64,000 nt of DNA from Candidatus Micrarchaeota archaeon (GTDB lineage Archaea > Micrarchaeota > Micrarchaeia > Micrarchaeales > Micrarchaeaceae), in assembly GCA_021816885.1 (NCBI GenBank), contig JAKAWS010000003.1, forward strand, positions 5,091-69,090, read 5' to 3'. Positions 1,006-58,679 of the stretch are shown here, piece by piece. Position numbers and translations under genes: made by a program. Below the pieces are notes generated by a model that was not told the origin of the DNA, made no database searches, and saw only the letters and a program-made list of their open reading frames with translations. Within the stretch, counting starts at the first letter, position 1. Each line of letters opens with the position of its first letter.

Positions 1006-1680
1006 CTATACCAGCAAGACAAGCACGCTTACCAAGCTCCCAAAAACGCTTCCGAAAAAGTTAGAGCTGAACTTGTTCCCAATTCCTCTTTCCTCAAACC
1101 ATCCAAGGAATGAATCGAACAGAGTCCCGGCAAAACCGCCTATTGCTATCACCCCTATGAGGTAATACATGTTTACGGAAATATACTGGTGCACAAACAC
1201 CACAAGCACAGCTATCAGAAAACTGCCAATAAAGCCAGCCACAAGCCCTAGCCATGTTATCCCGCCTGAGACCCCCTTATCAACCTTCTTAAACCCTATT
1301 ATAGACCTTGGAAATCCGTCAAGGACGCCTATCTCGCTGCTGAACTTGTCAGATGTGACTGCAGCCAACCCACTAAAGAACCCCAAAAGTGCAATCTGGC
1401 CCACATGCGGATATGTGTTTCTTGATAAAAAGTAAACAAAAATCATCAAAAGCGGCCAAGAACCGTTCGCAAGCACGTTCTTTATCCCCCTCTTTTTCTC
1501 ATATAGTCCTGCCCTTTTCTTATAACTGTGTCCAGTCTGGGTTACTGCGGCAGACAGAAATAGAAAGTAGAGCATGGCAAGTACGAAGAAGAGGCCGAGT
1601 TGCCCTCCAAACACCAAGAACAAACCACCCATAGCTACTGCAGCAACAACAGCAGGTCCATCAAGAGTCAAAAGCGTCAT
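1006..1680 (-). CDS. DUF92/TMEM19-like integral membrane protein
   Basis: 224 aa, 6-7 hydrophobic segments, glycine-rich motifs as in DUF92. Confidence 0.45.
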   Translation of the reverse strand: MTLLTLDGPAVVAAVAMGGLFLVFGGQLGLFFVLAMLYFLFLSAAVTQTGHSYKKRAGLYEKKRGIKNVLANGSWPLLMIFVYFLSRNTYPHVGQIALLGFFSGLAAVTSDKFSSEIGVLDGFPRSIIGFKKVDKGVSGGITWLGLVAGFIGSFLIAVLVVFVHQYISVNMYYLIGVIAIGGFAGTLFDSFLGWFEERGIGNKFSSNFFGSVFGSLVSVLVLLV

Positions 1681-1911
1681 ACAAACCGGCCTACCACGGA
1701 AAAACCTTGCATACTTCCACTATTATAAAAAGCATTTTAAATATATACCTGGCATATTATATTACGGGTTCTACAGAAGAATTTCGTGAAGAACTGGTCG
1801 CCTTGCCAGCGCCTAAAAGCGCTGGCACTATTTCTTCGCAGAACGATATCTATCAGATACCAACCTATTTATTCTTTCAGATACAGAATCTATTGCTTGT
1901 TTTGTGGTTTG

Positions 1912-2862
1912 ATGGTCAGAGAGAAGGCAATAAGGGAGCTGGAAGACCTACCTGGAATAGGCGAGGCCAGCACAGAAAAGCTGAAAAGTGCAGGGATAAC
2001 CACACTGGAAAGTGTTGCGGTACTGAGCCCGCACGAGCTTTCAGAGATATCGGGAATAAACGTAGAGGCAGCAAAGAAGGCAATAGCTGCAGCAAAGTCC
2101 GCTACGCATATAGAGTACGAGACTGCTGCGGCAGTCTCAAAAAAGAGGGAGGAACTCGGGAAAATAACCACAAACTCAAAAAATCTCAATGAACTCATAG
2201 GAGGGGGGGTCGAGACAAACGCAATAACGGAGGTATACGGCAAGTTTGCCAGCGGGAAGACCCAGATAGGGTTCCAGCTGGCAGTCAATGTGCAACTCCC
2301 CAAGAACAAGGGGGGTTTGGACGGAAGCTGCCTATTCATAGACACCGAGGGAACATTTCGGCCGGAACGTATCAAAGACATGGCCGAAGGGTCAGGACTT
2401 AAGGAATCAGAAGTGTTAGAGAAAATAATAGTGGTAAGAGCCCCGACTACTGACAAGCAGGTGCTTACTGCAGAAAGAGCAGACAAGATTATAGAAGAGC
2501 ACAACATCAAACTCATAATAGTGGACTCAATGATGTCTCTTTTCAGATCGGAGTTCATAGGCAGGGGCTCTCTGGGAGAGCGCCAACAGAAGCTAAACAC
2601 ACATGTCCACCAGCTTCAGAGGCTGGCAGATAAGTACAACATTGCGATATACATTACAAACCAAGTAATGGACAATCCCGGCATACTATTCGGTGACCCG
2701 ACTACGCCTGTGGGTGGAAACATCCTGGCGCATGCAGCTACTACCCGTCTATACATAAGGAAGAGCAAAGAGGAGAAGAGGATAGTGCGGCTGGTCGACT
2801 CGCCAAGCATGCCTGACGGAGAATGCATAATAAAAATAACCACAAAAGGAGTATCCGACTAG
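1912..2862 (+). CDS. radA: DNA repair and recombination protein RadA
   Basis: HhH N-domain (LEDLPGIGEASTEKL), Walker A GKFASGKTQ, and LFIDTEGTFRPERI. The ORF-track start at 1786 adds a non-conserved leader; the likely start is the ATG at 1912 (MVREKAIREL). Confidence 0.95.
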   Translation: MVREKAIRELEDLPGIGEASTEKLKSAGITTLESVAVLSPHELSEISGINVEAAKKAIAAAKSATHIEYETAAAVSKKREELGKITTNSKNLNELIGGGVETNAITEVYGKFASGKTQIGFQLAVNVQLPKNKGGLDGSCLFIDTEGTFRPERIKDMAEGSGLKESEVLEKIIVVRAPTTDKQVLTAERADKIIEEHNIKLIIVDSMMSLFRSEFIGRGSLGERQQKLNTHVHQLQRLADKYNIAIYITNQVMDNPGILFGDPTTPVGGNILAHAATTRLYIRKSKEEKRIVRLVDSPSMPDGECIIKITTKGVSD

Positions 2863-5258
2863 AGGATCTTTGCATCAACTACCGCGACTTTCTGTTCAAG
2901 ACTCACAAGCCTCACCCCACTTGCATTCCTTCCTGTCTTCCTTATTGAAGATACTGATATCTCTATCGATACCCCGTTAGAGTTCACTATCAGGAGACGG
3001 TCACTAGCTTTGCAAGCTATAACCTTTACCACATCGCCAATTTTCTGGTTTATCTTTATGTTGAGCACCCCCTTGCCTCCCCTTTTCTGCAACCTGTAAT
3101 CAGATATTCCAGTACACTTTCCGTAACCGTTCTTCGTCACAGTCAGTACCAAAGAATCGCTGGCAACACTTATTATTCCAACTACCTCATCATCCTTGCC
3201 AAGCCTTATCCCACGCACCCCCAGCGCCATCTTGCCCATGCTTCTTAGGTTCTCGGAAGGGAAGCGCAGGCCCTTGCCATTCCTTGTGGCTATGAATAGT
3301 TCAGAACCAGGAGCGCTTATGCATATCCCTGCCAACTTATCATTGTCCATCTCCGGAAGCACCTTTATTCCGTTTGACCTAGGACGCGAGAAAGCTTCAC
3401 CCCGTACCTTTTTTATTCTCCCGGTCTTGGTTGTAAAGATCAGGAACTTGTCTGCAAAGTCCCTTGTGCTTATCATGTTTATTATGTTTTCTCCCTGTTC
3501 TATGTTAATCAGGTTTATTATCGCCTTTCCAGAGCCGTATCTACTGCTTGCTGGCACTCCATACGCCTTAAGCCAGTATACCTTCCTTTTGTCAGTTACA
3601 ACGAGCAGGTAGTCCTTTGACATGCAGGATATGATTCCTACTACATAGTCACCTTCCTTCAACTCCATGCTCATGACTCCTCTTCCGCCCCTTCCCTGTT
3701 CTTTGTACGCTGAAGCCGGCAGTCTCTTCACATAGTTGTTTTTTGTGCGTATTATTACAGATTCTTCGTCTTTTATCAGGTCCTCGTTATCTATGCTCAT
3801 ATCCTCAAGATCTGAATCTATCCTTGTTCTCCTTTCCCTCCCATAAGCGCCCTTTACATAAACCGTCTCCTCCTTTATTATCTCATACACATATTTGTCG
3901 TCCGAAAGTACGAGTTCATCCTTTCCTATCTCCTTTTTGAGCAGGCTTATCTCATTTTTTATAGTGCCTTCCTCCAAAGAGGTCAGCCTCCTAAGCTGCA
4001 TCTCAAGTATTGCATCAGACTGCCTCTCACTTAGCTTATACTCCGAGGATAGTCTTGCACGTGCTCCTTTCGTATCAGAACTCCCCTTTATCAGCTGTAC
4101 TATTTCCTCTATGTTGTCTATTGCTACAGCCAATCCCTCAAGTATATGTACCCTATCCTTTGCCTTTTCGAGGTCGTAGACAGTCCTGTTCTTTACAACT
4201 TCAACCCTGTGCTGCACAAAGACCTTTATGGAATCCTTGATATTCATTGTAAGGAGCCGGTTTCCGATTACGGCAATGTTCATCACCGGGTTTGTAACCT
4301 GAAGGTTTGTGTGTGTGTAGATAAGGTTTGTAATAAGCTCCACATTTGCATCCTTCTTCATCCCTATGACAACGCGTATGCCATCCTTGCTGCTTTCGTC
4401 CCTCAGGAAGCCCACTCCTGTTATAACCTTGTCCCTAACTAGGGCAGCAATCCTCTCTACAAGCTGCGCCTTGTTAACATTATACGGAATTTCCTTTATT
4501 ATAAGATTTACCGAACCCTTCTCGTGTTCTATTTCTACTATTCCCCTTAAGGTCACTGAGCCTCTTCCAGTAAGGTACGACCTCATAAGTCCTGCATCCA
4601 TGAATGCGCTCCCCCCCGTAGGGAAATCCGGTCCTTTTATGTACTCCATCAGCCCTTCTGGACCTATCTCTTTGTTGTCTATGTAAGCGCATACCGCATC
4701 GCACACTTCTGCCAGATTATGCGGGAGAATATTTGTCGCCACCCCAACAGCTATGCCTGCCGAACCGTTTACGAGCAAGTTTGGTATCTTTGACGGCAGG
4801 ACCACCGGCTCTTCCTCTGTGTTGTCGAAGTTCTGCACAAACTTCACAGAGCGCTTTTCTATATCCTCTAACATCTCCTCAGCGATCTTCTGCGTCCTAA
4901 CCTCTGTGTAACGCTGTGCGGCCGGCGGATCACCATCTATAGAGCCCATGTTGCCCTGTCCTTCGACAAGCGGATGATTGAAAGAGAAATCCTGCGCCAT
5001 CCTGATTAGGGTCTCGTAGACCGCCATATCGCCATGCGGATGGAACTTTCCAAGCACTTCTCCGACCACTCTCGCGCTCTTCTTTGTCGGCTGGTCATGG
5101 GTGTTCTTTATCATATACATTGCATAAAGTATCCTTCGCTGCGCTGGTTTGAGGCCGTCTCTAGCGTCAGGAAGAGCGCGCCCAACAATCACGCTCATTG
5201 CGTAGTCTATGTAGCTTGACTGTATCTCAGTCTCTATCGATACCTCGATGTTTTGCAT
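2859..5258 (-). CDS. gyrA: DNA gyrase subunit A
   Basis: 799 aa. N-terminus YAMSVIVGRALPDARDGLKPAQRRILYAM includes the active-site Tyr region; a C-terminal beta-pinwheel follows. Confidence 0.95.
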   Translation of the reverse strand: MQNIEVSIETEIQSSYIDYAMSVIVGRALPDARDGLKPAQRRILYAMYMIKNTHDQPTKKSARVVGEVLGKFHPHGDMAVYETLIRMAQDFSFNHPLVEGQGNMGSIDGDPPAAQRYTEVRTQKIAEEMLEDIEKRSVKFVQNFDNTEEEPVVLPSKIPNLLVNGSAGIAVGVATNILPHNLAEVCDAVCAYIDNKEIGPEGLMEYIKGPDFPTGGSAFMDAGLMRSYLTGRGSVTLRGIVEIEHEKGSVNLIIKEIPYNVNKAQLVERIAALVRDKVITGVGFLRDESSKDGIRVVIGMKKDANVELITNLIYTHTNLQVTNPVMNIAVIGNRLLTMNIKDSIKVFVQHRVEVVKNRTVYDLEKAKDRVHILEGLAVAIDNIEEIVQLIKGSSDTKGARARLSSEYKLSERQSDAILEMQLRRLTSLEEGTIKNEISLLKKEIGKDELVLSDDKYVYEIIKEETVYVKGAYGRERRTRIDSDLEDMSIDNEDLIKDEESVIIRTKNNYVKRLPASAYKEQGRGGRGVMSMELKEGDYVVGIISCMSKDYLLVVTDKRKVYWLKAYGVPASSRYGSGKAIINLINIEQGENIINMISTRDFADKFLIFTTKTGRIKKVRGEAFSRPRSNGIKVLPEMDNDKLAGICISAPGSELFIATRNGKGLRFPSENLRSMGKMALGVRGIRLGKDDEVVGIISVASDSLVLTVTKNGYGKCTGISDYRLQKRGGKGVLNIKINQKIGDVVKVIACKASDRLLIVNSNGVSIEISVSSIRKTGRNASGVRLVSLEQKVAVVDAKIL

Positions 5259-33980: not shown

Positions 33981-34118
33981 GGGGTTGTGGCGTAACCAGG
34001 CAGCGCAGTGGGCTCCAGATATTTAGTATTAAGTTGAGCCGTTTGGGCGATGATGAGAATCTGGAAATATGAATAGTGAAGTAACCTGCTGGTCCGGGTT
34101 CAAATCCCGGCAACCCCA
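33981..34118 (+). tRNA. tRNA-Trp (anticodon CCA) with a 65-nt intron at the canonical 37/38 position
   Basis: Acceptor ggggttg/caacccc, D-stem gcgt/gcgc, anticodon stem gtggg/cctgc with loop ctCCAg|a, T-arm ccgggttcaaatcccgg, discriminator A. The exons are split by 34019-34083. Confidence 0.8.
34019..34083 (+). other. tRNA-Trp intron (canonical position)
   Basis: 65 nt. Contains GATGATGA (box C-like, 34050-34057) but no clear CUGA box D. Confidence 0.6.
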
Positions 34119-37715: not shown

Positions 37716-37811
37716 GCAGGGATGGCGGAGCATGGTCAAACGCGACAGACTCAAGATCTGCTGGCTTAGGCCTACGGGAGTTCAAAACGAGAACAAATCT
37801 CCCTCCCTGCA
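37716..37811 (+). tRNA. tRNA-Leu (anticodon CAA, type II) with an 11-nt insertion (putative intron) in the T-loop
   Basis: Acceptor gcaggga/tccctgc, 3-bp D-stem, anticodon loop ctCAAga, long variable arm (tggcttaggcctac), T-stem gggag/ctccc, discriminator A. The T-loop is 18 nt (ttcaaaacgagaacaaat). Removing 37784-37794 gives ttcaaat. Confidence 0.7.
37784..37794 (+). other. Putative non-canonical tRNA intron (T-loop 56/57) in tRNA-Leu
   Basis: 11 nt, aaaacgagaac. Its 3' end (gaa) pairs with T-loop nt 54-56 (ttc), the same architecture as the tRNA-Lys insert. Confidence 0.5.
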
Positions 37812-53715: not shown

Positions 53716-54720
53716 ATGCAAAACACAAACGCTATAGAGTTAAAGGCGCTCAGGAAGGAATTCAAGGTGAATGGCGGCAAATTCGTTGCAGTCGATGGAA
53801 TCTCGTTCACAGTAAAGGAAGGGGAGATATTCGGATTGCTCGGGCCCAACGGCGCCGGCAAAACTACTACTATATCGATGCTTACAACCATATTGAGCAA
53901 GACTTCCGGCTCTGTGAAGATATGCGGATTTGATGTGGTACGGGAGAAAGAGAAGGTAAGGGAGCTAATAGGAATAATCTTCCAAGATCCGTCCTTAGAC
54001 GATGAGCTGACCGCGCGCGAGAACCTAGACTTTCATGCAAGGCTATATGGAGTAAAAGAGGATAAGAAGTCTATTATCGAAGATGTGCTGAGACTGGTCG
54101 AGCTGGAGGAATACGCAGACCGCCAAGTCAAGACCTTTTCAGGGGGAATGAAAAGAAGACTCGAAATAGCGCGAGGCTTCATACACCACCCCAAAGTGCT
54201 CTTTCTGGATGAGCCAACAATCGGTCTTGATCCCCAGACCCGCAGAAAGATATGGAGCTACATAACCCGACTGAACAAAGAGAAGAATCTCTCGATAATA
54301 CTTACCACACATTATATGGAGGAGGCGGATGAGCTGTGCGACCGGATTGCGATAATAGACCACGGCAAGATAATAAAGATGGGTACGCCAGAAGGCCTAA
54401 AGAGCTCGTTTGGCGGAGATGTAATACGCATAGGCACAAAGGAGAAAAAGGAGCTGCATACCCTGCTCAAAAAGGTCTCTGGCATAAAAAACATAAAAGA
54501 GTCAGAGACCGGAATCGAGATATCCGGAAATGATGGCTCTAGACTTATGCCAATCATAGCCAAGGCGGCAAACAAAAATAAACTGGAGATAGACTACATG
54601 ACTGTCAAGCGTCCGACCTTGGAGGATGTTTTCATAGGCCTTACAGGGCGAGACATAAGAGATGAAAGTGCATCATCCAAGGACGTTCTTAGGGCGTTCA
54701 CAAGAGGTAGACATAGATGA
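53716..54720 (+). CDS. ABC transporter ATP-binding protein (ABC-2 type)
   Basis: Walker A GPNGAGKTT, signature FSGGMKRRLEIA, Walker B LFLDEPT. Confidence 0.9.
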   Translation: MQNTNAIELKALRKEFKVNGGKFVAVDGISFTVKEGEIFGLLGPNGAGKTTTISMLTTILSKTSGSVKICGFDVVREKEKVRELIGIIFQDPSLDDELTARENLDFHARLYGVKEDKKSIIEDVLRLVELEEYADRQVKTFSGGMKRRLEIARGFIHHPKVLFLDEPTIGLDPQTRRKIWSYITRLNKEKNLSIILTTHYMEEADELCDRIAIIDHGKIIKMGTPEGLKSSFGGDVIRIGTKEKKELHTLLKKVSGIKNIKESETGIEISGNDGSRLMPIIAKAANKNKLEIDYMTVKRPTLEDVFIGLTGRDIRDESASSKDVLRAFTRGRHR

Positions 54721-55499
54721 GCCGATCGTTAGATGCCATATATACGATATGGCTTAGGGAGATGTTGCGATTCATAAAGTCAAAGTCGCGCATAGTTGGA
54801 AGCGGCGGACAGCCTCTTGTCTGGCTTGCGATAGTAGGGGTAGGGTTAGGTACGGCGTTCGGCCTGCACATCGGCTCTAGCAGCATATCCTATCTGACAT
54901 TCGTATCTCCAGGCCTTATCGGGATGACCATCCTTTTCAGCTCTATGTTCGCAGGGGTAAGTGTCATATGGGACAGGCAGTTCGGCTTTCTAAAGGAGAT
55001 ACTTGTAGCGCCGGTATCAAGACTTAGCATAGTGCTTGGGAAGATAGCTGGCAGCAGCACCATTGCTGTGATGACTGCCCTTCTAATCCTTGTGATTGTG
55101 GCAGCGATAGGTGTGATACCTCTGAGCATGCTCTCTGTTGCCGGCATACTAGAAGCGATCGTCTTCATGTTCCTTGCATCAATGACATTTGTTTCCATAG
55201 GCCTGATAATCGCAGCTCTCATAAACAACATCGAGTCTTTTCAAGTACTCATGAACTTTTTTGTGATGCCATTATTCTTCCTCTCTAGCGCGCTATTCCC
55301 GATAACCGGCAATGTGCCGGCCTGGCTCTTCGATCTGGCTCACATAGACCCGCTCTTCTATTCCATAGACGGGATGCGTGCTTCACTGATTCACTTCTCA
55401 ACTTACCCTATATACGTGGATGGAGCCGCCTCTGTCGCCTTTACTATAGTCTTCATTGCAATTGCAACCGCGCTGTTCAAGCGTATAGAGGGAAAATGA
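54717..55499 (+). CDS. ABC-2 type transporter permease
   Basis: 6 TM segments. Translationally coupled to the ATPase by a 4-nt overlap. Confidence 0.8.
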   Translation: MSRSLDAIYTIWLREMLRFIKSKSRIVGSGGQPLVWLAIVGVGLGTAFGLHIGSSSISYLTFVSPGLIGMTILFSSMFAGVSVIWDRQFGFLKEILVAPVSRLSIVLGKIAGSSTIAVMTALLILVIVAAIGVIPLSMLSVAGILEAIVFMFLASMTFVSIGLIIAALINNIESFQVLMNFFVMPLFFLSSALFPITGNVPAWLFDLAHIDPLFYSIDGMRASLIHFSTYPIYVDGAASVAFTIVFIAIATALFKRIEGK

Positions 55500-55535: not shown

Positions 55536-56264
55536 ATGGTCAATCTAAAGAGGATACCGGAAGATTTAACAAGAGTAACCGGTCCCGCGGATACAATAGT
55601 AGAGAACCTCAAGTATCTGAGGAATCCGACAGAAGGCACACATTCCTTAAAAACAGCTATCAGCTCATCGGCATCATTGTTAAGGGCAGACAGCTATCAT
55701 GACCCTATAACTCAAGAATTTGCCGCATCGCTGATCCGCGGCCTTACAGAGGAAAAGAGCGTCACTGCAGCGATAAAGATGGCAGAATCTAAAACAAAGA
55801 AGATGCAGAAGGAATGTGGGGAATACGACACCAAAGCGCTAACGAAGATAGCCAAAAGCCTAGACCTCCTTAAGAAGAAGACCCAAAGGTCCGGAAGGCG
55901 GTTTTTCCCTCCGCGTTACACATACGCCCGCGCGGAGTCGCGCGCATTGAAGAAAATAACCAATTTCATAGCCGGCAAATCAGACGTACAGCTTCTAGAA
56001 TGGGCCACAGAGATAAAGCGCTTCCTCGTCTTATCCGAGATGGTAAGCATCGTCAGGCACAGGCTCAAAGACTACGGCGCGTCCGTATCAGATCTTACTG
56101 ATTATTTCCTGCTGCATTTCGCGAACGGCCAATCGCCTCCGAAAGGCGGTGGAAAATACGTTCCGAAACAGCAACCTACTACAAAGAAGACACGTACCAC
56201 AAAGAAGAAACGCATCAACCCAGTTGCTTCTGCCCCAGATACCTCTACTCAAACTGGCCCCTAA
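55536..56264 (+). CDS. Hypothetical protein with a basic, Lys/Thr-rich C-terminus
   Basis: 242 aa, no recognisable motif. C-terminus KYVPKQQPTTKKTRTTKKKR. Confidence 0.3.
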   Translation: MVNLKRIPEDLTRVTGPADTIVENLKYLRNPTEGTHSLKTAISSSASLLRADSYHDPITQEFAASLIRGLTEEKSVTAAIKMAESKTKKMQKECGEYDTKALTKIAKSLDLLKKKTQRSGRRFFPPRYTYARAESRALKKITNFIAGKSDVQLLEWATEIKRFLVLSEMVSIVRHRLKDYGASVSDLTDYFLLHFANGQSPPKGGGKYVPKQQPTTKKTRTTKKKRINPVASAPDTSTQTGP

Positions 56265-56311
56265 TCAGTCAAAAGGGTTAAAAACAGGCTCATGCAAACA
56301 TAATTGATAAT

Positions 56312-56446
56312 ATGCCGACAAAGAGCTCGAAGAAAAGTCCAAAGTCGTCAAAGAAGGCAGAATCCTGCTGTACAAGCTGTTGCTCATGCTGTACCTGCAG
56401 TCACTGCGGCGGCAGGAAAAAAGCGTGCAAGTGCGACTGTTGCTGA
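56312..56446 (+). CDS. Small Cys-rich (metallothionein-like) protein, 44 aa, not in the ORF track
   Basis: Direct translation gives MPTKSSKKSPKSSKKAESCCTSCCSCCTCSHCGGRKKACKCDCC*: 14 Cys in the last 27 residues (CC, CxC, CxxC arrays). An A/T-rich tract taattgataat lies just upstream. Confidence 0.5.
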   Translation: MPTKSSKKSPKSSKKAESCCTSCCSCCTCSHCGGRKKACKCDCC

Positions 56447-56490
56447 ACAGGATGCGATAAAGGCCAACACACCCATACAGGCGATGCGCT

Positions 56491-57228
56491 ATGAAGAAGA
56501 TAGTCCTACTCTATTATGCGCTCATATTGGTCTTAGTCGTACTTGGTGCAGCGCTAGTTACCTACACATTAGGCCGCACGCCAGGTAACTTCAATACAGG
56601 GATAAACAGTTTTGTCACGGCGGTATATTTCACTATTGTGACCATATCTACAGTTGGATATGGCGACATAGTCCCGGTAAGCACAATTGCAAGGCTGTTC
56701 GTCATAGCGCTGATAATCATCGGCCTAGGTACATTCGCATTTGTATTAACATCTTTATCCAGTGATATAATGAGCAAAAGATTGGAATCTTTCGCAGGGC
56801 GCATAAGCAGCACAGAGAAGCGGCTGCTACACAACCATATAGTGCTGATAGGATACGGCCCGACAAATGTCGCACTTCTTAGCGCACTCAAGCAAAAGAG
56901 CGGACACATGATAATTGTCTCTCCCGACAAGGTCGTAATAGACCAGCTCAGCGATGAAGGCTACAAGGCCTTCGTCGTCGACGTGACTTCCGAGAAAGAC
57001 ATGAGTTCTCTGAATCTTGACAAAGCCCAAAGGATAATAATAGATATGAGGCACGATTCTCTTACTGTATACGTTTCGCTGCTTGTCAAAAACATAACGA
57101 AGAAAGACAACATAGTGATTGTTGCCGAAACCCCAACGGCCGAGAAGCAGCTTCGGAGTATCGGCATGGAAAATATAATAAATCCCGGAGAGATAGCTGC
57201 ACAGCATATCACAAAAAGCTTGAGTTGA
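56491..57228 (+). CDS. 2-TM potassium channel with a C-terminal RCK/TrkA-N domain (MthK-like)
   Basis: Selectivity filter TVGYGD and Rossmann-type IVLIGYGPTNVAL. 245 aa. Confidence 0.85.
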   Translation: MKKIVLLYYALILVLVVLGAALVTYTLGRTPGNFNTGINSFVTAVYFTIVTISTVGYGDIVPVSTIARLFVIALIIIGLGTFAFVLTSLSSDIMSKRLESFAGRISSTEKRLLHNHIVLIGYGPTNVALLSALKQKSGHMIIVSPDKVVIDQLSDEGYKAFVVDVTSEKDMSSLNLDKAQRIIIDMRHDSLTVYVSLLVKNITKKDNIVIVAETPTAEKQLRSIGMENIINPGEIAAQHITKSLS

Positions 57229-57581: not shown

Positions 57582-58679
57582 TTGGCAGACTTCACATACA
57601 TACTTCTATCTGATCATAGATTCATAAAGGAAGCGAAGTCTGAGATTTCTCTGCCATCAAAAGGGACCACAGAGCTAATAATCGACAAATATACGCGTAT
57701 CTTTACGGTGCCTTCAAAGTTGGCCATTGACGGCCAGCAAATCTTCACATACTCGCTCATGCAGGCCAACACTGCGGAGTTCAGCGAGATTGGTAGTCTC
57801 TCCGCTCTTATATCAGAATCGTTAAAGCCGGGCCTCAGTTTCAGGATATTTCTTATAGACGCATCCTCACAGTTCGAACGAAACAGGGACATCGAGATAA
57901 AGCTCGGGGAGCAGATAGAGTCGGAGGAACATCCGGTCAAACTAGATAATCCGGACTGCGCCGTCCTTTTGATAATAAAGGACAGTTTCGCCATATTCGG
58001 CATAGCAGAAGACCCAGAGTCGGTGCACGCCATATGTACTATCTTCCGACCTGGCCAATCAAAGAAGGACTACATAAGTCGTTCTGAAGGAAAACTAGAA
58101 GAGGCGATAGAACGCTTCCGCATAGACCTTTCTACAGTAGATACATGCATAGACGTCGGTGCCGCGCCCGGAGGCTGGACCGACCTGATGCTTAGAAACG
58201 GAAAACGGGTCATAGCTATAGACAAAGGAGAGCTGGAATACAAGCGACTCAGGCGATATGGGCAGATTGCAATAGTTCCCGAGCCGGAAGAGCTGGATAA
58301 AATGAAAAAGATATCCGGCACGATAGATACCGGAATAACAGTTTGCCAAGGCATGCCCGAGCAGGAATTCATGTTGGTACACATAAAGAGCAACTTCGGA
58401 GAAGAAACTGCAAAGACGCTCGGTCGCCGTGTCGAAATGCTGTTAGTAGATTCAAACACCCACTATACCGAAAGCATAAAGTGTGCGCTTGCTCTCGCAG
58501 ACTCCGTAAAAGCAGGAGGCCTGCTTGTCCTAACTCTAAAGATAAACAACCACAAGCCAACGCAGGCGATAGATTATGCGGCTTCCGAACTGTCTGCATC
58601 GTACGGTGATATAGCTATCAAGAAACTTGTCAAGGACAGGCGTGAGCTCACCCTTTTTGCAAAAAAGATTAGCCCTTGA
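57582..58679 (+). CDS. THUMP-like + FtsJ/RrmJ-type 2'-O-ribose RNA methyltransferase (RlmM-like)
   Basis: C-terminal MTase motif IDVGAAPGGWTD (RrmJ SAM loop). The N-terminal ~180 aa are THUMP-like. Confidence 0.6.
   Translation: MADFTYILLSDHRFIKEAKSEISLPSKGTTELIIDKYTRIFTVPSKLAIDGQQIFTYSLMQANTAEFSEIGSLSALISESLKPGLSFRIFLIDASSQFERNRDIEIKLGEQIESEEHPVKLDNPDCAVLLIIKDSFAIFGIAEDPESVHAICTIFRPGQSKKDYISRSEGKLEEAIERFRIDLSTVDTCIDVGAAPGGWTDLMLRNGKRVIAIDKGELEYKRLRRYGQIAIVPEPEELDKMKKISGTIDTGITVCQGMPEQEFMLVHIKSNFGEETAKTLGRRVEMLLVDSNTHYTESIKCALALADSVKAGGLLVLTLKINNHKPTQAIDYAASELSASYGDIAIKKLVKDRRELTLFAKKISP

Follow-up and report, generated by a model that had tools for sequence, protein, structure and literature searches.

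A conserved 44-codon cysteine-rich gene next to an archaeal K+ channel gene is a candidate for a metallothionein-like peptide

In the window, by which we mean the whole 64-kb stretch of DNA analysed here, a short, Cys-rich open reading frame (ORF) lies directly before a K+ channel gene, and it raises two questions: is it a gene, and what kind of peptide would it encode? The ORF occupies 56312..56446 on the + strand and runs from an ATG start through 44 codons to a TGA stop, with the translation MPTKSSKKSPKSSKKAESCCTSCCSCCTCSHCGGRKKACKCDCC, exactly as a preliminary description of this DNA had given it. One detail needed correction, as the 14 Cys in 27 residues reported there are, on recounting, 12 Cys in the last 26 residues. 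The ORF is unannotated, as had also been stated, and none of the six NCBI MAGs with a 100% identical region lists it. Of the 44 residues, 12 are Cys (27%), nine are Lys, nine are Ser and one is His; no F, W, Y, L, I, V or M follows Met1, and the net charge is about +8. Alignments and composition divide the peptide into an N-terminal Lys/Ser-rich basic tail (residues 1-18, 56312..56365, +) and a Cys-rich domain (residues 19-44, 56366..56443, +) that is 46% Cys and has the arrangement CC-x2-CC-x-CC-x-C-x-H-C-x6-C-x-C-D-CC, or, for Cys only, CC-x2-CC-x-CC-x-C-x2-C-x6-C-x-C-x-CC. The densest other stop-free stretch of 26 residues anywhere in the window contains 8 Cys, and in 20 shuffles of the window the top stretch contained 5-8. 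No paralogue of the small gene was found in the window. Read directly from the sequence, the peptide has no signal peptide or hydrophobic segment, and a secreted disulfide peptide was rejected for the absence of a signal sequence. The gene product would be a cytoplasmic, two-part peptide of 44 residues, in which a disordered, strongly basic Lys/Ser tail is joined to a 26-residue domain with 12 Cys and one His and without a hydrophobic core.

To follow the ORF into diverged relatives, we fetched these through homologues of the K+ channel and then sought the ORF in the same gap and the same frame. It is present there in L008 and L009 (MQKKSAKKGSKSSKKEQQLVQQDSSCCTCSHCGGKKKACKCDCC; channel 97% identical), in L010 (MPKKSTKKSSRSSKPSKAEACCTGCCSCCNCAHCNGKTKSCKCDCC; channel 74% identical) and in L013 (MPKKSTKASSKKSKTSSCCTNCCSCCNCAHCGGRKRACKCDCC; channel 71% identical). 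A further member, L174 (MAKKAKKTPSKQMKCCSKCCSCCDCRHCSGRKGRCGCDCC), was recovered by a Cys/His pattern scan of metagenome contigs and has unlike surroundings. With L008 and L009 taken together, the family comprises five distinct sequences (window, L008/L009, L010, L013 and L174), the first four from lineages of a single clade and L174 from outside it. In L015-L018, whose K+ channels are 52-53% identical, no such ORF lies within 3 kb, the same gap included. The preliminary description had named loss of the frame in related genomes as evidence against a gene; the frame, the start and the stop are kept in L008, L010, L013 and L174. The window, L010, L013 and L174 agree in all 12 Cys, the His, one Gly, the Asp and the TGA stop, with identical Cys spacing; the start, the stop and the full Cys/His/Asp array are unaltered in four of the five distinct sequences. 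The basic tail differs in sequence among the lineages and retains its composition in all five.

The substitutions in these relatives have the pattern of a coding sequence. In three pairwise comparisons the nucleotide differences at the first, second and third codon positions are 7/7/16, 7/10/26 and 8/11/25, the third position dominating, and Nei-Gojobori estimates give pN of 0.14-0.20 against pS of 0.63 to about 1, with dN/dS of about 0.11 for the window versus L010. Eleven of the 12 Cys codons vary between TGC and TGT among four sequences with zero replacements. We conclude from these comparisons that purifying selection acts on the Cys/His array. In the two shifted sense frames, one of which is that of a 94-aa ORF at 56304..56588, pN equals or exceeds pS in five of six comparisons. 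This 94-aa ORF, which is in a different frame from the small ORF and had been called spurious-looking in the preliminary description, was rejected as a gene: its frame is not conserved in relatives and behaves as non-coding (pN > pS). We also considered that the sense frame of the small ORF is not coding, and that the conservation comes from an antisense Gln-rich frame or from a non-coding element. The antisense frame likewise has pS > pN and stays open over 80 aa in L010, 67 aa in L013 and 74 aa in L174; it mimics a coding signal because the two strands share wobble positions (TGY reads as CAR, Gln). Against this, a stop (CAG TGA) interrupts it in both the window and L008, neither of its ends is conserved, and the L010 version extends into the K+ channel gene. 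The limits of conservation fall exactly at the sense ATG and TGA, and TATA- and SD-like signals accompany the sense start in every lineage. A non-coding element is opposed by the lack of an Rfam match and of excess structure at the ORF region, where folding is no better than that of shuffled sequence (z = +1.5); a structured RNA element was rejected on the same grounds. We regard an antisense or non-coding origin of the conservation as scarcely credible, and are highly confident that 56312..56446 is a real protein-coding gene and not a chance ORF.

The sequence conservation begins at a shared upstream element, and ends at the TGA. This element contains a putative archaeal promoter at 56271..56284 (+), in which a TATA-like TTAAAAA (-34..-28 relative to the ATG) comes after a purine-rich, BRE-like AAAAGGG. 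The corresponding element is AAAAGGGYTAAAAA in L008 and L010, GAAAAGCTAAAAAA in L013 and CATAAAAATAAATA in L174, and all five lineages have a TATA-like (Y)TAAAAA at about -34..-28, preceded by a purine-rich stretch. A TATA-like box stands about equally far from the start in other genes of the window that come first in their operons, and the closeness of the box to the ATG suggests a very short leader. A Shine-Dalgarno (SD)-like TTGAT (56304..56308, +; -8..-4) partially matches GGTGAT; the relatives have GGTAAT, TGATAA or GTGATG at this position, so that a GGTGAT-like motif is located at about -9..-4 in five lineages. GGTGAT-like motifs at about -11..-5 are common before the genes of the window. 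Scoring of promoter and ribosome-binding site had been suggested as a check: the TATA-like and SD-like elements are conserved, and the SD score on its own discriminates weakly (30% of genes reach it, versus 9% of all ATGs). We consider both elements putative, as a promoter and a ribosome-binding site predicted from position and conservation.

The K+ channel gene (56491..57228, +; Pfam Ion_trans_2 and TrkA_N) begins 44 nt downstream of the ORF, as previously described, and is followed on the + strand by a NAC homologue and then by an FtsJ-like methyltransferase gene; its synteny extends over L002-L014. On the + strand, neither a T-run nor a terminator-like site occurs in the 44-nt gap, so transcription could continue into the channel gene, which may be co-transcribed with the small gene. 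The small gene would have its own TATA-like promoter, and in the clade its transcription would probably read through into the K+ channel-NAC-FtsJ gene string. This arrangement recalls a translated leader peptide (uORF), whose sole role would be to control the K+ channel operon, for example by sensing the supply of Cys-tRNA; the distance of 44 nt, the missing terminator and the richness in one amino acid all fit. However, in L174 the next gene is convergent, leaving nothing downstream to control, selection keeps the His, the Asp, the Gly, the exact spacing and the C-terminus, none of which a ribosome-stalling leader needs, and no alternative-hairpin structure is present. We consider a pure leader peptide very improbable.

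Within the clade, the position of the K+ channel gene next to the small gene is conserved. L174 is an exception to this linkage, with no channel nearby; in its place, an FMN reductase gene is divergent upstream of the small gene, and genes for an ABC-2 permease and ATPase are convergent downstream. The different context of L174 implies that the small gene moves independently of the K+ channel. Features of the L174 locus lie at 1185..1871 (-) and 2748..2870 (+), and an AbiEii-type toxin gene also adjoins. In none of the five contexts is the small gene linked to a metal transporter or a metal-responsive regulator. In the window, genes for an ABC ATPase and an ABC-2 permease (53716..55499, +) lie within 2 kb of the small gene, and the gene directly upstream (55536..56264, +) encodes a 242-aa protein with no Pfam family above the curated cut-off. 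The ORF of this protein is conserved in the clade at 236-312 aa, and its C-terminus is a basic, Lys/Thr-rich tail, reminiscent of that of the small peptide. Otherwise identical MAGs give the FtsJ-like methyltransferase gene (57582..58679) different starts, for a product of 365 aa (TTG start) or 319 aa, and the N-terminal 46 residues are uncertain. Elsewhere in the window, Rfam tRNA matches at 33981..34118 and 37716..37811 are 138 and 96 nt long, far beyond the standard tRNA length, and are probably intron-containing archaeal tRNA genes. The named relatives of the K+ channel at 43-48% identity are from Micrarchaeia/Micrarchaeota and Marsarchaeota, and the host of the gene is an archaeon, which has the NAC gene and these two long tRNA matches, and would be DPANN-like, probably of the Micrarchaeota.

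The nearby ABC genes and the two-part layout of the peptide, with a leader-like and a core-like half, bear on a further explanation, namely that the ORF encodes a RiPP precursor or an exported Cys-rich peptide in which a Lys/Ser leader precedes a Cys core handled by the ABC transporter. In the window and in L008 the transporter genes are no more than 2 kb away, and in L174 they follow directly downstream, but the ABC ATPases of the window and L174 are only 35% identical, implying that they are not a conserved partner, and ABC genes are missing from the neighbourhoods of L010 and L013. None of the five loci has a radical-SAM enzyme, cyclase, dehydratase or C39 peptidase close by, and the tail lacks a double-glycine leader. 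The SCIFF ranthipeptide precursors ('six cysteines in forty-five residues') resemble the peptide in their length of about 45 residues, their Cys-rich C-terminal half and their hydrophilic N-terminal half, and differ in that the archaeal peptide has a DPANN host and twice the Cys. The peptide has no match to the SCIFF or any other precursor model of NCBIfam, and no radical-SAM gene is found in any neighbourhood. We consider a RiPP or exported peptide quite improbable.

Searches of protein collections returned no relatives. A word-indexed search of 5.8 billion predicted proteins, with the single peptide and with the five-sequence alignment, found no homologue; phmmer found none among 1.84 billion cluster representatives; and the exact peptide is absent from a collection of 15 billion proteins. 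The window peptide has no Pfam match at E <= 1, none of the five members matches a Pfam metallothionein family (PF02069 included) at E <= 10, NCBIfam gives no credible match, and no metallothionein chain of the PDB is found at E <= 10. The only profile matches, to DUF7168 (one member, E = 0.37) and to a lysine 2,3-aminomutase chain (E = 8.6), are not credible. A BLASTP comparison with human MT2A, for which we used a sequence entered by hand, gave E = 22. The single-sequence AlphaFold model of the peptide has a pLDDT of 72, with a compact, hairpin-like Cys domain at 77-88, and no matching fold was found in the PDB. A loose Cys pattern applied to viral contigs produced at least 120 matches, those listed being chance matches, and no homologue of the small peptide was found on viral contigs. 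The lack of a homologue in the protein, Pfam, NCBIfam, PDB and viral searches implies that the family is entirely unannotated, and we consider the small gene to represent a genuine new small-protein family. It also carries a lesson for annotation, in that real genes of fewer than 50 codons are missing from databases of billions of predicted proteins.

At the nucleotide level, a 45-bit Cys/His pattern was run against metagenome contigs, and L174 was the sole true member among the matches listed; the family may well have others. Almost all of these matches (L139-L258) are (TGY)n microsatellite-like tracts that translate as poly-Cys. Such tracts swamp degenerate Cys-codon patterns, and searches for Cys arrays therefore need non-Cys anchor codons. 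A stricter 60-nt pattern with such anchors, TGYTGYNNNTGYNNNCAYTGYNNNGGN(13)TGYNNNTGYGAYTGYTGYTRA, matched the family members alone among 258 loci and offers a specific probe for mapping the family. A scan of genome contigs for the K+ channel yielded, among the matches listed, an unrelated Verrucomicrobiales locus only.

What would such a peptide do? With 46% Cys, no hydrophobic residues and no signal peptide, the domain should have no conventional fold in a reducing cytoplasm. To our knowledge, metal-thiolate coordination is the only established route to structure for Cys-rich, non-hydrophobic sequences of this kind. The motif style (CCxCC, CxC and a terminal CxCC) and the interleaved Lys/Ser point to metal-thiolate clusters of the metallothionein type, and we favour this reading as the most likely one, slightly more probable than not. 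Defined operationally, a metallothionein is a protein of less than about 10 kDa with roughly 15-35% Cys arranged as CC/CxC/CxxC and few or no aromatic or hydrophobic residues; the peptide has 44 residues, 27% Cys in such motifs and, apart from Met1 and the one His, no residues of the latter kinds. C/K-rich low-complexity segments have been described as a metallothionein signature (PMC11132505). The metallothionein hallmarks claimed in the preliminary description thus stand as far as composition goes (27% Cys, CC/CxC motifs) and do not extend to sequence or fold similarity to a known family or to linked metal genes. For this reason, we use 'metallothionein-like' as a term drawn from composition, metal binding being our deduction. 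Further points against a metallothionein-like peptide are the 18-residue basic tail, which is atypical of metallothioneins, the tolerance of the L008/L009 member for the loss of four Cys (described below) and the size of the family, of which only five distinct sequences are known.

A close parallel is the alpha-domain of vertebrate metallothioneins (for example human MT2A residues 31-61, M4Cys11). Like the archaeal domain it is small and cytoplasmic, about a third to a half Cys, and without an aromatic/hydrophobic core, and it has Lys/Ser between the Cys, CC/CxC/CxxC motifs, an internal CCxCC and a C-terminal CxCC. The archaeal candidate, in contrast, has no detectable homology to it, consists of a single domain after the 18-residue basic tail and has one conserved His. 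The Cys domain would fold only around metal ions and, by analogy with the mammalian 11-Cys M4 alpha-domain, which binds four divalent ions, would hold about four Zn(II)/Cd(II), or more Cu(I). Lys/Arg beside the Cys would balance the cluster's negative charge, and the role of the peptide would be the cytoplasmic buffering or sequestration of thiophilic metals. The bacterial SmtA/BmtA (PF02069) and MymT are prokaryotic, small, cytoplasmic Cys(+His) peptides as well, and it is plausible by this analogy that the conserved His is among the metal ligands. SmtA folds much like a zinc finger, has a hydrophobic core and aromatic residues, and uses Cys9His2 as its ligands. The archaeal peptide differs from these bacterial proteins in its much higher Cys density and in having no PF02069 or PDB match.

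The basic tail and the compact Cys domain of the AlphaFold model are also compatible with a Zn-stabilised, basic regulatory or nucleic-acid-binding mini-protein, whose Cys/His domain would coordinate one or two structural Zn in the manner of a zinc knuckle or ribbon. Its tail KSPKSSKK resembles SPKK minor-groove motifs and would touch nucleic acid (DNA or RNA) or an acidic partner, for example the cytoplasmic RCK/TrkA domain of the channel. The net charge of about +8, the basic composition kept in all five tails and the conserved place beside the K+ channel within the clade agree with such a role, and small Cys-motif zinc-finger regulators are known in archaea, namely Brz (PMC2253796) and members of the Haloferax small proteome (PMC10117724), some of the haloarchaeal proteins being basic and regulatory (PMC2253796, PMC10117724). 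The haloarchaeal CPxCG zinc-finger proteins (Brz, HVO_2753 type) share with our peptide an archaeal host, a length below 70 aa, frequent absence from annotation and Cys-dependent metal binding. With their two to four CPxCG motifs, they bind one or two structural Zn, whereas our peptide has 12 Cys in CC/CxC arrays, and CPxCG, of which such micro-proteins have two or more, occurs in none of the five family sequences. Twelve Cys in 26 residues with three successive CC pairs exceed what structural Zn needs and are typical of thiolate clusters; moreover, the sequence has no CCHC knuckle spacing and no zinc-finger family match, and L174 has no K+ channel nearby. We therefore consider a Zn-stabilised mini-protein unlikely, while counting it as the main alternative.

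If the metallothionein-like reading is right, the peptide may found an archaea-specific metallothionein family, a one-domain 12-Cys/1-His cluster with a basic tail, and the first to be described in Archaea; judging from the sequences, we advance this only tentatively. Metallothioneins are called uncommon in prokaryotes in a passage of PMC8490943 that cites Blindauer 2011, a study of archaeal Cd response and metal tolerance reports no metallothionein genes (PMC3407056), and the phrase 'archaeal metallothionein' had no match in a full-text literature search. Such a family would mean that genome-reduced DPANN cells have a metallothionein that every gene caller and protein database has missed, and from its conserved place at the head of the K+ channel operon, the gene might link the function of the channel to metal or redox status. 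The conserved, selected 12-Cys mini-gene is a concrete candidate for cytoplasmic metal buffering in archaea.

The one family member with an altered array, that of L008/L009, differs from the window by a segment of 23 nt that is inverted in place (56360..56382, +, in the window; 2871..2893 in L008). Between the window and L008, this segment matches at 22 of 23 positions as the reverse complement and at 4 of 23 directly, and assuming the single inversion reduces the mismatches over the whole ORF from 29 to 11. The window orientation is ancestral, because it is common to L010, L013 and L174. The inversion turns SCCTSCCS into EQQLVQQD, so that four of the 12 Cys are lost, eight are left and the frame stays open. 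It is present in two independent ENA assemblies (L008 and L009) and probably arose by mutation, through template switching or a short inversion; a programmed switch is possible. In either case, it provides a clean natural example of a short inversion that reshapes a coding sequence with the frame intact.
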